The notes: generated by a model from the letters alone, not told the origin. A stretch of DNA of 64,000 nt from Microbacterium sp. (GCA_031555515.1 JAVBUG010000158.1:1591-65590), one strand, 5' to 3'. Counted from the stretch's first letter, positions 38,050 to 43,661 are shown. Translations and numbers: made by a program.

Positions 38050-38197
38050 GCACGGGATTGAGGGGTGCCGCCCCAGTCCCATGCGGCACCCCTCGAGGTT
38101 CGGCGGCGAAGACCCATAGCCGATTCATCGTCCCCAAGAGGGTCTTCTGTCAGCCGCTCCCCGACCCCCCGTCGGCGAAGCGCAAGCCGTTCCGCAG
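38050..38197 (-). ncRNA. Candidate structured small RNA downstream of the CHAT gene
   Basis: Promoter-like element at 38203-38233; hairpins at 38161-38175, 38108-38147 and a 12-bp stem at 38060-38094; G-rich loops; no credible ORF. Confidence 0.4.
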
Positions 38198-38202
38198 ACC
38201 AG

Positions 38203-38233
38203 GAGCACGCAGCATCCGTCCTGATACACGGAT
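38203..38233 (-). promoter_or_regulatory. Putative ECF promoter, copy 2 (ATCCGTGTATCA-N15-GCTC)
   Basis: Same 12-mer and same spacing to GCTC as the element upstream of the sigma gene. Confidence 0.6.
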
Positions 38234-38245
38234 CGCGAAGAAATC

Positions 38246-40732
38246 TCAGAAACCGGCGCCGTGCACCTGGAACGGGGCCACGATGCCGGTTTGGACGGAT
38301 GCTGCAGCCAGCGCCTCGGAGGGCCCGACGCCCGCCGCGAGCCCCTCGTGCATCGCGCCCAGCAGCTCGCATGCGTCGTCATCGGCGACGATCACCGGCG
38401 CGGCGATCACCGCGCGGGCGCCGGCGTGCAGCCACACGCGCGTCATGCCGATCGCCTCTTCTCCCCAGCGGACCGAGGACCGTCCGACCTCGCAGGCCGA
38501 CAGCACGACGGTGTCGGGCACCTTCTCGATGAGATCGATGTCGTAGCCGAACAGCGTGCCGTCGGCGAGTTCCAGGCCCGAGAACATCGGGTTGTCGACC
38601 GCGTGCCGGCCGTGCGCGGCGACGTGCAGGACGTCGACCTCGGAGGCGAGGCGGGTGGTTGAGGCGATGTCGGCGTCCGACAGCACGACGGGCGTCGCCC
38701 AGGCTCCGGCCGCGGTGACGACCTCCTCCCGTCCGCGCGGCACACGGGGGCCGACGGCGAATCCCGCCGCAGCGGGCGGGGCGGCGGCGACCCGCCGGAA
38801 TCCCTGCCAGCGCGAAACCGACGCCGCGAGCGTGAAGGCGCGGCCTCGCAGGGCGGGAAGCATCGCCCACGGGATGCCGCTGAGCACCCCGGGTGCGGTG
38901 AGGACGATCCGCCGCGAGCCGACGAAGCGGAGCACCGGGTCGAACAGCGTGCGCGACAATGCCGCGAGCCTCTCATCGAGCGATCGCTGCACCATGGGAC
39001 GGAACCCGGAGCCGAGCGGCCTCGACGCCGACATATCGAGGTCTGCGCGCAGACCCCCCATCAGCTCCCGCACCGGCCGCCAGTCACCGAGGTGGACGAG
39101 ACGCGCATCATCCGCGCTGATGACGACGGCCGCGAGGCGGTCGCCGGTGTAGATGAAGGCGAGGATCGCGGCGTCCGCTCCCAGCTCGCTCCGCGCTTCC
39201 TCGATCCCCACCCGGCGGAGCACGGCAGCGGCTCCGGTCGACGACCACTGACGCTCACGCGCCCGGCTCTGCAGCTCCTCCGCGCGAGGGCCCGTGAGCC
39301 CTTCACCCTCGCCCTGTTCGGCGCGCAGCATCCGGAGCTCCGCGAGATCTTCCGCGAGGGCCGCATCCGGCGGTGGACGCAGCGGCGCGACCTGGAAGCT
39401 CAGGTGTCTTGCGCGCTCCGACCAGTCGAAGACCACATCGGGCCGGCCCGAGTGCACCGCGGCCGCCAGACCCGCCCGGATCAGGCCGTCGCCGTGCATC
39501 GTCAGCGAGGTCTGCAGATCGAGGCTTCCGAAATCGCGCTGCCAGTCGAAGAGCGCGTCGAGGCCGGATGCTGCGTGCCGCCGTGCGTCGGCGTGCCGGC
39601 CACGCGCCTCCGCCTTGGCGGCGAGCACCTCGTGCTCGAGCACGCGCACCTCCATCGTCGCTGTCGGCGGGATCCGCACGCGGCGTCCGTCCGGCCGGCC
39701 GTGGCGCGCCTCCCACAGCTGGCGTGCCAGGCGGAGAGCGGCACCCTCGGTACGGAAGCCGTGCCGTTCCAGCGCGCCCGCGACGCCGTCGACCTCTTCC
39801 TCCGACGGCACGCGACGCGGCGGCGCGGCGCGTACCCCGTTGCGCAGCACCTGTCCTCCGGCGAGCTCTGCACGCATCGCGAGGGCCTCCGCCCGAGACC
39901 CCCAGGTGTCGTTGCTGAAGCCCCGGAAGTGGCGGGCCGCCGCGCGCGCGACGCGGCGCGCTCGTGCGGGATCGTGGGAGAGGAGCGAGCGGGCGAGCTG
40001 GAATTCCGCCTCGGCGCGCTCCTTCGGCATCCGGGTCTCGCCGAACGTCGTGGCCGCGCTCGCGAGGAGGACTTCCGCCTCGCGGGTGAGGCCGGCCTCG
40101 CGCAGCACCGTGGCCCGATCGAGATCGCCGATCGCCGCGTTCCCTCGCGAGACGCCCGAGATGGTGATGCGCGCCGCGGTCATCTCGCTCAGTGCGGAAA
40201 CGATGTCGCCCCGCAGCAGGTCGATGTATCCGAGGTTGTGCCGGGCTTCCGCGGCATCCACCGGACGCTCGGCGTCGGCGAAGATGGCGGCAGCCGACGA
40301 GGTGTCGTCGGCAGCCCGGTCGAGGTCGCGACGCTGCATCCCGATGAGCCCTCGATTGATCAGCATGTTCGCCCGGGCGATCGGATCGTCCGTCGTGTCG
40401 ATCGCGCGGCTGAGCCACGTATCGGCGTCGTCGAGCCGACCGCCGAACTCTGCGATCGCCCCCATCTGCCCTTCCAGGATCGCGATCGTCTGACGCGAGA
40501 GCCCGTCGGTGTTCAGCGCGTCCAGACAGAGCCGCTCGGCCTCGACGATGTCGCCGGTACGCGCGCGGATCACGGCGAGTGTGCCGGCGATCCGCGCGAG
40601 CAGGTCGGGGTCTTCGGTCAGTGCCCGGGCGCGCGCCAGGGCACGCTCAGCGGCCGCGAGCCTCCCCTGAGTGGCCCGATCGACCGCCTCGCGGTGCAAC
40701 GCCGCCGCGGAAGTCCCCATCGCACTCATCAT
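38246..40732 (-). CDS. TPR + CHAT (caspase-like) protease
   Basis: N-terminal TPR-like helices (ARHNLGYIDL); catalytic His LHVAAHGRH and Cys VVLSACEVG; start may be 40720. Confidence 0.9.
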   Translation of the reverse strand: MMSAMGTSAAALHREAVDRATQGRLAAAERALARARALTEDPDLLARIAGTLAVIRARTGDIVEAERLCLDALNTDGLSRQTIAILEGQMGAIAEFGGRLDDADTWLSRAIDTTDDPIARANMLINRGLIGMQRRDLDRAADDTSSAAAIFADAERPVDAAEARHNLGYIDLLRGDIVSALSEMTAARITISGVSRGNAAIGDLDRATVLREAGLTREAEVLLASAATTFGETRMPKERAEAEFQLARSLLSHDPARARRVARAAARHFRGFSNDTWGSRAEALAMRAELAGGQVLRNGVRAAPPRRVPSEEEVDGVAGALERHGFRTEGAALRLARQLWEARHGRPDGRRVRIPPTATMEVRVLEHEVLAAKAEARGRHADARRHAASGLDALFDWQRDFGSLDLQTSLTMHGDGLIRAGLAAAVHSGRPDVVFDWSERARHLSFQVAPLRPPPDAALAEDLAELRMLRAEQGEGEGLTGPRAEELQSRARERQWSSTGAAAVLRRVGIEEARSELGADAAILAFIYTGDRLAAVVISADDARLVHLGDWRPVRELMGGLRADLDMSASRPLGSGFRPMVQRSLDERLAALSRTLFDPVLRFVGSRRIVLTAPGVLSGIPWAMLPALRGRAFTLAASVSRWQGFRRVAAAPPAAAGFAVGPRVPRGREEVVTAAGAWATPVVLSDADIASTTRLASEVDVLHVAAHGRHAVDNPMFSGLELADGTLFGYDIDLIEKVPDTVVLSACEVGRSSVRWGEEAIGMTRVWLHAGARAVIAAPVIVADDDACELLGAMHEGLAAGVGPSEALAAASVQTGIVAPFQVHGAGF

Positions 40733-40760
40733 GCCGTGCGGGACGATGGAGGGCGAGAGG

Positions 40761-42455: not shown

Positions 42456-42528
42456 GTCGTCTCCTCACACACATGGGAGCCGCGGCCCCCAGGCCGCGGC
42501 ATCCGATCTTCGTATCTCGAACTGGTTG

Positions 42529-42996
42529 TCAGACTTCGAACTGCGGGGTCTGGAAGTCGCGCAGCGCCCCGTCGGCGTCGCGCACCACCAGGCGAAGCCG
42601 CGCCACCCCGGGCGTGACCTCGTCGAAGGCGAAGCGTCCGTGCTCGCCCGGTTCGGCCGACCACTCGCGGTCGCCCTGGATCAATCGGATGGCGAGGGCC
42701 GTGGCATCCACCCATCCGTCCACGCGTCGCTCGCCGCCCTCGGTGGCGGTGACGTGCAGCAGGACGCTGGTCGTGCCGTCGCTGAACTGCAGCGTCGCGG
42801 TGTCGGTCTCGCCCCGCACGGCGGCGAACGTCCCCTCGACGAGCGTCAGGAGGGCATACTCCCGCGACAGGTCCTCGACGGCGACCGCGGCGACCATCTG
42901 GTCGACGAGGCCGGCCGGCACGGGGTCGACGTCCTCCCACATGCGGCGCATTCGTGCGAAGAGCGCGGCGTCGGCCGCAAAGTCTTCAGTTTCCAT
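42529..42996 (-). CDS. Putative soluble anti-sigma / sigma partner
   Basis: Overlaps the sigma stop; N-terminal helix (MWEDVDPVPAGL), AVRG, beta-rich C-terminus (RVDGWV, HGRFAFDEVTPG); no TM. Confidence 0.6.
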   Translation of the reverse strand: METEDFAADAALFARMRRMWEDVDPVPAGLVDQMVAAVAVEDLSREYALLTLVEGTFAAVRGETDTATLQFSDGTTSVLLHVTATEGGERRVDGWVDATALAIRLIQGDREWSAEPGEHGRFAFDEVTPGVARLRLVVRDADGALRDFQTPQFEV

Positions 42997-43612
42997 CGTC
43001 GTCACCTCTCCATCCGTCTCCCTCGAGTACGGCGCGTAGCTTCGCGAGGCAGCGCTGGCGGGTCGGTCCGATGGATCCGATGGGCATCGCGAGGTCTTCT
43101 GCGATGCGGGCATAGTCGGGGCGGTCCTCGAACGCGACGATCCGCAGCAGGCGCTGGCATCGTTCGTTGAGCGTGGCCACCGCTGTCCAGAGGCGACGTG
43201 TCTCGTCGTCCTGCGCGGCGGTCTGCTCGGCGGATTCGTGGACCGGAAGGTGCGGTTCGAGCGACTCGGCCTCCGTGGCATCGGCACGCCGATGCTGTTT
43301 GCCGACCCGCCACGCCTCACGGCGCGCGCACATCGTGAGCCATCCCGACACCGCGAGGGGGTCGTTGATGGTCTCGTGACGGCGTACGAGCGTCAGCCAG
43401 GTCGTCTGCACGACGTCCTGCGCCAACGCAGGATCGAGCCCGTACGCCCTCACGACGTGCCATAGCGGCGGCGTCATCAGGCGGACGAGTTCGTCCATCG
43501 CGCGGCTGTCTCCTTCACGCCACCGCACGAAGAGTGCGGCGGCGCGCTCCCATCGCGCCGGCTCCACGGAGTCGACGGATGGTTCGGCGCCAGCCTGCGT
43601 CATAGCGCCCAT
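42986..43612 (-). CDS. ECF RNA polymerase sigma factor
   Basis: Region 2 AQDVVQTTWLTL..WL...ARREAW; region 4 YARIAEDLAMPIGSIGPTRQRCLAKLR; start 43612 or 43603. Confidence 0.9.
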   Translation of the reverse strand: MGAMTQAGAEPSVDSVEPARWERAAALFVRWREGDSRAMDELVRLMTPPLWHVVRAYGLDPALAQDVVQTTWLTLVRRHETINDPLAVSGWLTMCARREAWRVGKQHRRADATEAESLEPHLPVHESAEQTAAQDDETRRLWTAVATLNERCQRLLRIVAFEDRPDYARIAEDLAMPIGSIGPTRQRCLAKLRAVLEGDGWRGDDDGN

Positions 43613-43630
43613 TCTGTCCACACCATGCCC

Positions 43631-43661
43631 GAGCGCGATAGTGCGGGTTTGATACACGGAT
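43631..43661 (-). promoter_or_regulatory. Putative autoregulatory ECF promoter, copy 1 (ATCCGTGTATCA-N15-GCTC)
   Basis: Lies about 20 nt upstream of the sigma start; twin of 38203-38233. Confidence 0.6.

Follow-up and report, generated by a model that had tools for sequence, protein, structure and literature searches.

A compact ECF54-type sigma factor module in Microbacterium with two proteases, a predicted promoter pair, and a candidate small RNA

We analyzed a 64,000-nucleotide stretch of DNA from Microbacterium sp. (GCA_031555515.1, JAVBUG010000158.1:1591-65590; hereafter, the window) and focused on a minus-strand module at positions 38058-43656, in which four co-oriented genes encode a sigma factor of the extracytoplasmic function (ECF) type, a small protein of 155 amino acids (aa), a subtilase of family S8, and a tetratricopeptide repeat (TPR)-CHAT protease. 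Gene context and, tentatively, promoter sequence place this cassette in the ECF54 type. Two copies of a motif, apparently the private promoter of the sigma factor, preceded the sigma operon and a candidate structured RNA located downstream of the CHAT gene. In our estimation, there is an even chance that the small protein holds the sigma factor until proteases activated by a cue cut the small protein, whereupon the sigma factor drives the operon and the RNA. A sequence-only reading of the window had described four closely spaced minus-strand genes at 38050-43661, and the open reading frames (ORFs) were present as claimed. Comparisons within the genus were based on 80 Microbacterium loci retrieved with the CHAT protein, 72 of which contained all four genes.

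Promoter Pair and Predicted Regulon

The first copy of the putative promoter (43631-43656, minus strand) lies upstream of the sigma gene and consists of TGTATCA (43656-43650), a 12-nt spacer, and CGCGCTC (43637-43631). The second copy (38203-38228, minus strand) is located 18 nt past the CHAT stop codon and consists of TGTATCA (38228-38222), a 12-nt spacer, and CGTGCTC (38209-38203). The motif, comprising TGTATCA, a T nine bases on, and then CGnnCTC, was present ahead of sigma in every one of 70 orthologous upstream regions, and a GTATCA box was present within 200 nt past the CHAT stop codon in 64 of the 72 loci. The strict form TGTATCA-N12-CGnnCTC had exactly two matches in the host assembly (Microbacterium; 4.1 Mb in 387 contigs, 85% complete), both in the module and on the same strand, against a chance expectation of ~0.5 in this genome given the base composition. 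Because only these two copies were found, one before the operon and one before the RNA, the predicted regulon in this assembly consists of the module and the RNA. The proposal in the sequence-only reading that the sigma factor transcribes its own operon and a downstream RNA thus gained comparative support from the motif before both, with the transcription starts being predicted.

The motif recurred in distant families ahead of sigma or protease operons, and in two of these families (L111 and L118) it preceded G-rich structured stretches. At L115:8126 (+), the motif preceded an ORF with a Rossmann-type motif typical of flavin adenine dinucleotide-dependent oxidoreductases (DVVVVGSGFGGS) and no RNA, suggesting that the sigma regulon differs between lineages.

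Boxes resembling -10 elements, conserved in orthologues, were also found 6-7 nt before start codons (CACAAT or CAGAAT for the sigma gene, 43611-43616), and CAAGAT, CATGAT, or CATTCT occurred before the CHAT start (10-20 nt upstream, ~40721-40740). These boxes suggest extra housekeeping-type promoters that would give leaderless transcripts. Two RNA-library contigs ended ≤7 nt from the sigma ATG, where a DNA contig also breaks.

Small RNA Downstream of CHAT

A candidate sigma-dependent small RNA (sRNA) of ~138 nt lies at 38058-38195 (minus strand). Across loci, the elements followed one plan: a closing helix from the predicted transcription start (GGAAC...) onward, a GGGG-loop hairpin, a CUGGGGG linker that is single-stranded, another stem whose internal loop is UGGGG and whose apical loop contains GGGG, and a strong terminal hairpin, which has 12 bp in the window (38060-38094). 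The element was kept in most of the 72 Microbacterium loci, with a length of 120-160 nt across loci. The RNA strand was 41% G and 29% C, and GGGG was by far the commonest hairpin loop among 54 aligned elements, the G-rich loop motifs being conserved while the stems varied. Among close relatives, the length shifted by 1-2 nt, indicating that the element is not coding.

For the covariance model R1, the structure of 14 copies was drawn by hand and realignment was guided by the model; R1 found 38 plus-strand copies, including the window copy (42 bits, E-value 2e-5) and three loci in which the element had moved away from CHAT. The element stayed in the locus despite changed gene order at L020, L026, L028, L029, L032, L035, and L041. 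In the model-fitted alignment, 89.5% of cells were paired, compared with 38-51% when partners were slid by 1-3 columns, 37 of 43 pairs changed on both sides, and no shuffle reached the observed values; this alignment was fitted to R1, and 27 of its 65 rows were reverse-strand matches to the palindromic terminator. Most compensatory changes fell in the internal helices. Because indels misaligned the remainder of plain MAFFT alignments, RNAalifold picked out only the terminator and a single hairpin from them. Divergent Microbacterium clades showed the same RNA plan with scores below the R1 threshold. Rfam gave no relevant match at E ≤1 for the element in the window or for the best-scoring orthologue (L007), and a weak search with a weak control turned up no actinobacterial 6C RNA (RF01066) in the assembly; a conceivable role for the G-loop RNA would be to sponge 6C. 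The element is thus a candidate for a new, covariation-supported actinobacterial sRNA family absent from Rfam.

A metatranscriptome run from the study to which the likely source metagenome belongs contained contigs with full identity to the window, lying over parts of the sigma gene, the small-protein gene, S8, and CHAT. One RNA-library contig (38137-38342) extended over the 3' end of CHAT and promoter copy 2 into the initial ~60 nt of the RNA. The sigma gene of a relative was present in a soil metatranscriptome. The RNA-library contigs are a weak hint of module transcription: they give no start, strand, or level, DNA carry-over is possible, and neither the uncovered parts nor the empty result from run X21 says anything on expression. 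Regarding the RNA output suggested in the sequence-only reading, a conserved structured element with its own promoter copy was real, and its transcription was weakly hinted at by these contigs.

The same UGGGG loop motif occurred in a hairpin in the spacer between the small-protein gene and S8 (42479-42500, minus strand), identified from sequence in ~10 loci of the window's clade. This hairpin is a possible attenuator or protein-binding site, and it may be a recognition element common to the sRNA; it is tempting to speculate that a factor recognizing UGGGG-type loops might be titrated by the sRNA. An Rfam match to Rothia-sucC at 42479-42503 on the opposite strand (E-value 0.69) was judged to be due to chance. 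In one clade, tandem units of ~22 nt in 3 to ~10 copies, each a short GC hairpin followed by ACAC (GCGGGnnnnCCCGCACAC), filled the spacer before the ribosome-binding site of S8 (L044, L049, L052, L054, L062, L071, L073, and L076).

The Sigma Factor and Its Small Partner

The ECF sigma factor (205 aa; 42986-43603, minus strand) matched Pfam Sigma70_r2 and NCBIfam sigma70-ECF (E-value 1.9e-17; orthologue alignment A2). An alternative in-frame ATG was located at 43612, and the full-length sigma70-ECF match covered residues 60-216 of a 230-aa reading with no extra domain. The architecture was that of a minimal ECF sigma factor with sigma-2 and sigma-4 regions only.

The gene for the 155-aa partner (42529-42996, minus strand; orthologue alignment A1) starts within an overlap with the sigma stop codon, and this overlap was kept in nearly all loci. 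Pairwise identities across loci were strongly correlated between the sigma factor and the small protein (r = 0.90), compared with r = 0.30 between the sigma factor and S8, indicating that the sigma factor and its translationally coupled partner are a tightly co-evolving pair. The AlphaFold model of the small protein, based on 39 orthologues, showed N-terminal helices at residues 4-23 and 30-51, a low-confidence region at residues 42-63, and an eight-strand β-sandwich at residues 66-155 with a predicted local distance difference test score >90. The low-confidence linker was conserved in sequence, and its Arg residue (AVRG) was invariant across Microbacterium; both the helices and the linker Arg (GVR motif) were retained in distant families and in paralogues. 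From these features, the small protein is a candidate anti-sigma factor or protease substrate.

No Pfam or NCBIfam family matched the small protein above threshold. Weak CarboxypepD_reg matches were obtained for 17 of the 39 orthologues, and the C-terminal sandwich was CarboxypepD_reg-like; CarboxypepD_reg is a β-sandwich domain and not a peptidase. Foldseek returned generic immunoglobulin-like β-sandwiches only, and a search of Protein Data Bank (PDB) sequences gave no match. As a lead only, a similar C-terminal sandwich (TM-score 0.52) occurred in an Atlas cluster with the zf-HC2 anti-sigma domain in 67% of its members. Clusters of this kind, in which an N-terminal zf-HC2 domain is followed by a sandwich resembling that of the small protein, were likewise weak leads.

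The small-partner family comprised >1,200 protein clusters at 90% identity. Apparent fusions of the sigma factor and the small protein in databases (P0124, P0125, and P0127) were rejected as natural fusions, since they were frameshifted readings through the sigma-4 region. The records P0124, P0125, P0126, and P0127, annotated as long sigma factors or 578-aa proteins, read through the sigma-small or small-S8 genes by way of frameshifts; they stem from errors of assembly or gene calling and can be mistaken for domain fusions.

The Pro-Subtilase and Its Repeat Array

The pro-subtilase (564 aa; 40761-42455, minus strand) matched Pfam Peptidase_S8 with an E-value of 4e-24. Its catalytic residues Asp244, His299, and Ser512, together with the oxyanion Asn398, were invariant in 42 relatives, in agreement with the earlier statement that the catalytic triad is kept. 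The AlphaFold model (predicted template modeling score, 0.84) showed an ordered prodomain-like N-domain at residues ~20-170, a disordered repeat linker at residues 174-219, and a catalytic domain at residues 230-535. The top Foldseek matches over ~500 columns were unprocessed pro-forms, namely fervidolysin, PCSK9, ProN-Tk-SP, and pro-Tk-subtilisin, and Pfam detected no I9 domain. Because the model has an ordered N-domain and its nearest structures are unprocessed pro-forms, the S8 protein looks like an intracellular zymogen.

At the junction between the prodomain and the catalytic domain, Tandem Repeats Finder detected five units with a period of 21 nt (41850-41954, minus strand), encoding identical PYGTRTN peptides with an NP[FY] core. 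The 21-nt units were only 81% alike in DNA despite the identical peptides, confirming peptide-level selection. A junction array was present in every S8 orthologue, with a unit of 5-8 aa, 3-8 copies, and a species-specific sequence (NPFTA, NPFKA, NPFGKT, NPYGST, NPFSRT, NPVGGKT, NPHSIT, and others), and the common core of the units was a small residue followed by Asn-Pro-aromatic. This xNP[FY] core resembles AAPF, the classical subtilisin substrate, in having Pro at P2 and Phe or Tyr at P1. By this resemblance, it is plausible that the array is a linker for multi-site autoprocessing or a pseudo-substrate linker; the other obvious reading is that it is a candidate docking array for the TPR domain.

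The TPR-CHAT Protease

The gene for the caspase-like TPR-CHAT protease (38246-40732, minus strand) encodes a CHAT domain at residues 588-814 (E-value 2e-22), and its start is probably the third ATG at 40720. The His residue of the AAHG motif and the Cys residue of the SACE motif were invariant in 23 orthologues, so that the His/Cys dyad noted in the sequence-only reading was kept throughout. The TPR match of the window's own CHAT protein was below threshold, TPR_12 was matched by 19 of the 23 orthologues, and the CHAT family profile matched the TPR domain of a kinesin light chain (E-value 1.3e-4), so that the TPR assignment is sound at family level.

Two other CHAT genes in the assembly (contigs C121 and C242; L001 and L003) were unrelated to the module, with a best identity of 28% over 171 residues, and tblastn detected no sigma, small-protein, or S8 partner beside them.

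Co-Conservation and Hypervariability of the Protease Segment

A neighborhood survey, which had been put forward as a check on the sequence-only reading, showed that the module genes are co-conserved in the 72 Microbacterium loci and in distant actinobacterial families; a lack of co-conservation, named in that reading as a refuting outcome, was thus not observed. The usual gene order was sigma, small protein, S8, and CHAT; CHAT preceded S8 in six loci, and insertions were found in a few. The small-protein profile detected relatives in 21 of 401 sampled Actinomycetota genomes, representing 16 genera. Most of the distant loci retrieved kept the sigma, small-protein, CHAT, and S8 genes together, with varying order and orientation. 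In one other actinobacterial family, three small-protein paralogues were found at L109 (G123:C3:1668000-1687900) and two at L110 (G137:C7:13000-32900), each locus having two CHAT genes, two S8 genes, and one sigma gene on one strand within ~13 kb.

Conservation was uneven along the module. Pairwise locus comparison delimited a hypervariable segment comprising the whole S8 gene and CHAT residues 1 to ~700 (38632-42455, minus strand). Among the 72 loci, the median identity to the window was 77% for the sigma factor, 70% for the small protein, 50% for the whole S8 protein, and 54% for the whole CHAT protein. By domain, it was 39% for the S8 N-domain, 59% for the S8 catalytic part, 49% for the CHAT TPR region, and 67% for the CHAT catalytic part. 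Comparison with M. ureisolvens (L067) illustrated the boundaries: starting in the upstream flank, DNA identity was 90% as far as 42457, where S8 begins, then 66% or unalignable, and back to 82-85% from 40138 onward. In 50-aa windows, the sigma factor and small protein of the two loci were 92-100% identical, S8 was 29-60% identical throughout, and CHAT was 32-64% identical up to residue ~700, with 86-94% identity over the last ~130 residues.

The mosaic pattern was seen in comparisons with L067, L016, L014, L008, and others, in which S8 and CHAT(1-700) were only ~46-62% identical, against 86-98% for the sigma factor, the small protein, the CHAT C-terminus, and the flanks; for the sigma factor and its partner, identity between close relatives was 92-98%. 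Among 67 locus pairs with sigma identity ≥88%, many had S8 identities of ~53-66% and CHAT(1-700) identities of ~46-60%; the pairs of another clade stayed at 85-98%, showing that one Microbacterium clade lacks the hypervariability. S8 and the N-terminal part of CHAT were exchangeable separately (e.g., L006 vs. L041). Since the DNA itself was highly diverged, the hypervariable segment looks like allele replacement by old divergent alleles rather than the result of a small number of adaptive changes. Mosaics of this kind are typically found where selection is diversifying or frequency-dependent, and no other observation hints as strongly at a place for the proteases on the sensing side of the system.

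Genomic and Cellular Context

The window has a G+C content of 70-72%. The module is flanked by genes for a glutamine amidotransferase (divergent) and LysR (convergent), with an Na/H exchanger gene and an aminotransferase gene as further neighbors, and the same flanking genes recurred in many orthologous loci. These data indicated that the module is a stable, vertically inherited chromosomal Microbacterium locus and not a mobile island. No CRISPR array or cas gene, including Cas7-11, was found among the neighboring genes, consistent with the CRISPR independence that had been proposed. A cytoplasmic location had also been proposed; a crude hydropathy scan agreed with it, in that no signal peptide or transmembrane segment was found in any of the four proteins (no 19-residue window reaching a Kyte-Doolittle value of 1.6).

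PADLOC-DB 2.0 assigned no defense-system membership to the module. The only similarity was generic to S8 (subtilase, E-value 4.7e-7; IetS, E-value 4e-4), along with a marginal BovA match (E-value 0.004), and there was no match for the sigma factor or the small protein.

Proposed Mechanism and Alternative Explanations

In the proposed circuit, the small protein would at rest hold the sigma factor through its two N-terminal helices. The fast-evolving CHAT TPR region, the S8 prodomain and repeat linker, or both would sense a cytoplasmic cue, and one or both proteases would be activated, with the repeat linker serving as a multi-site processing or docking segment. The small protein would then be cut, perhaps at the conserved disordered AVRG linker, and the freed sigma factor would amplify its own operon and make the RNA, which would be a trans-acting output or a feedback element.

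Several observations weigh against this circuit. Sequence and fold searches (Pfam, NCBIfam, PDB sequences, and Foldseek) tied the small protein to no known anti-sigma domain. The anti-sigma label given to this protein in the sequence-only reading was accordingly not upheld by any sequence or fold link, and what speaks for it is the coupling, the co-variation with the sigma factor, and the helix-sandwich fold. The genomes of one family had up to three small-protein paralogues and two protease pairs with a single sigma factor, an excess that a protease substrate or adaptor would fit at least as well as a simple anti-sigma factor. In this species, the proteases belong to the sigma factor's own operon and may be outputs of the circuit instead of inputs, and we infer the ligand activation of TPR-CHAT as well as every cleavage step by analogy. 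The transcription start sites are predictions, and because the assembly is 85% complete, further promoter copies may exist. Finally, in 41 loci the RNA paired with the translation start regions of the sigma, small-protein, S8, and CHAT genes no better than with random operon windows (duplex energies, median z 0.0 to 1.5), and feedback by RNA pairing to these regions was not supported.

The proteases might instead be effectors, such that the sigma factor and its partner answer another cue and switch on a two-protease pair for abortive infection, self/non-self discrimination, or bulk proteolysis, with the hypervariable S8/TPR-CHAT segment reflecting an arms race with phage or competitor proteins. 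Taking both parts together, we regard this as unlikely. S8 and CHAT are indeed downstream in the sigma operon with no separate motif copy, they gave the weak PADLOC subtilase and IetS matches, and S8 and CHAT(1-700) were replaced or diverged between strains whose sigma factors are 93-98% identical, as is common in conflict loci. However, the PADLOC similarity was generic to S8, and the flanks were conserved and of housekeeping type with no defense island. Moreover, distant families often transcribe the proteases divergently, yet with linkage to the sigma and small-protein genes, and one Microbacterium clade lacks the hypervariability.

According to the mechanism suggested for ECF54 in the literature (PMC8999054, section 3.3; PMC7826278), there would be no anti-sigma factor; the subtilase and/or CHAT would degrade the sigma factor until a signal stops degradation, and the small protein would be an accessory or adaptor. 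The lack of a recognizable anti-sigma domain in the small protein is in line with this proposal. However, sigma/anti-sigma pairs typically show the strict translational coupling and tight co-variation seen here, and an S8 protein that resembles a zymogen with its prodomain bound suggests proteases whose default state is off rather than constitutive degradation. We thus consider sigma degradation improbable for this locus.

Cleavage of the small protein may also be set in a broader and bolder scheme, which we hold to be quite doubtful. The module would be a polymorphic cytoplasmic surveillance system operating without CRISPR, in which allelic, recombining sensors (the pro-subtilase with its array and the CHAT TPR region) detect a variable intracellular ligand, for example a protein of a phage or competitor. 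Cleavage of the small protein by the proteases would fall in the AVRG linker, and the trans output of the sigma factor would be essentially one G-loop sRNA that titrates an RNA-binding factor or C-rich RNAs.

With regard to the RNA alone, it is similarly doubtful that the element is a structured 3' region and bidirectional terminator between CHAT and LysR, or the remnant of a sigma-driven small-gene cassette: the terminal hairpin is common to the convergent LysR gene, the same motif drives protein genes in other families (e.g., the oxidoreductase-like ORF in L115), and no RNA target was found in the four module start regions tested, but in dozens of species compensatory changes preserve the pairing of helices upstream of the terminator, the promoter copy of the element is kept in most loci, the element remains in the locus when gene order changes, and its G-rich loop motifs are conserved while stems vary.

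Comparison with ECF54 and Other Known Systems

For ECF54, proteolytic control without an anti-sigma factor was proposed from conserved carboxypeptidase-, subtilase-, and CHAT-domain neighbors (PMC8999054, section 3.3), a context credited to Huang et al. (2015), as cited in that paper. ECF54 is also listed among the ECF groups without a clear regulator (PMC7826278; Casas-Pastor et al., 2021). The module in the window has in common with this group an actinobacterial two-domain ECF sigma factor, subtilase, CHAT, and CarboxypepD_reg-like neighbors, and the lack of a recognizable anti-sigma domain. The "carboxypeptidase" neighbor of ECF54 is explained by the weak CarboxypepD_reg matches of the small protein. 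The cassette is therefore of a known, bioinformatically described, and experimentally untouched kind. The remark in the sequence-only reading that sigma/S8/CHAT neighborhoods occur without a characterized mechanism was right, but the neighborhood had already been published as the ECF54 context (PMC8999054; PMC7826278). In the papers examined, ECF54 is described by gene context only, and no mention is made of a sigma-dependent sRNA, of an NP[FY] array at the junction, of a coupled partner made up of helices and a sandwich, or of hypervariability in the protease segment.

ECF54 is widespread in Actinomycetota and is among the ECF groups without a demonstrated regulator. The locus in the window represents a compact version of this system, in which a pair of promoters and an RNA read-out accompany two proteases and a candidate inhibitor that carries a conserved candidate cut site. 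Its value lies in the two-promoter regulon, the covariation-supported sRNA, the candidate cut site, and the mosaic sensor segment. If proteolysis of the small protein does release the sigma factor, the logic of Craspase and Calp, in which an inhibitor is cut to free a sigma factor, would occur in a chromosomal circuit that stands alone. What such circuits detect would then be hinted at by the hypervariable sensor segment, and the RNA would be a new actinobacterial sRNA family.

In the type III-E Craspase system, Cas7-11 acts with the TPR-CHAT protease Csx29 on the substrate Csx30, and a sigma factor is controlled by proteolysis (PMC10028731). The module resembles this system in that its TPR-CHAT protease is encoded beside an ECF-type sigma factor and a small protein by which this factor may be held. 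The sequence of events, from a cut inhibitor to a freed sigma factor, is also alike and, for the module, is proposed only. The small protein had no detectable similarity to Csx30. In contrast to Craspase, the module lacks Cas7-11, crRNA, and a CRISPR array, so that a target RNA on a Cas effector cannot be the signal, and it adds a second protease, the pro-subtilase, at a conserved chromosomal locus.

An ECF sigma factor is also released by proteolysis in CalpL/CalpT/CalpS. This type III-B system is similar to the proposed circuit in that a protease operates the release of an ECF sigma factor from a soluble anti-sigma factor. In the SAVED-CHAT cascade (bioRxiv 10.1101/2023.06.23.546230), a CHAT protease activates a second protease, and the module likewise combines two proteases. 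Unlike the module, which has no SAVED domain, cyclase, or CRISPR component, these systems are triggered by cyclic oligoadenylate via SAVED.

The S8 protein resembles classical I9-type pro-subtilases (pro-subtilisin E, pro-Tk-subtilisin, PCSK9, and fervidolysin) in its pro-form fold over ~500 columns and its intact triad and oxyanion Asn. It differs from them in having no signal peptide, no Pfam I9 domain, and a junction of 3-8 identical species-specific units. The candidate sRNA, in turn, is comparable to CsrB/RsmZ, with GGA loops, and to the actinobacterial 6C RNA, with C-rich loops, as a short hairpin RNA repeating one loop or linker motif, and it is set apart from both by its own motif, GGGG.

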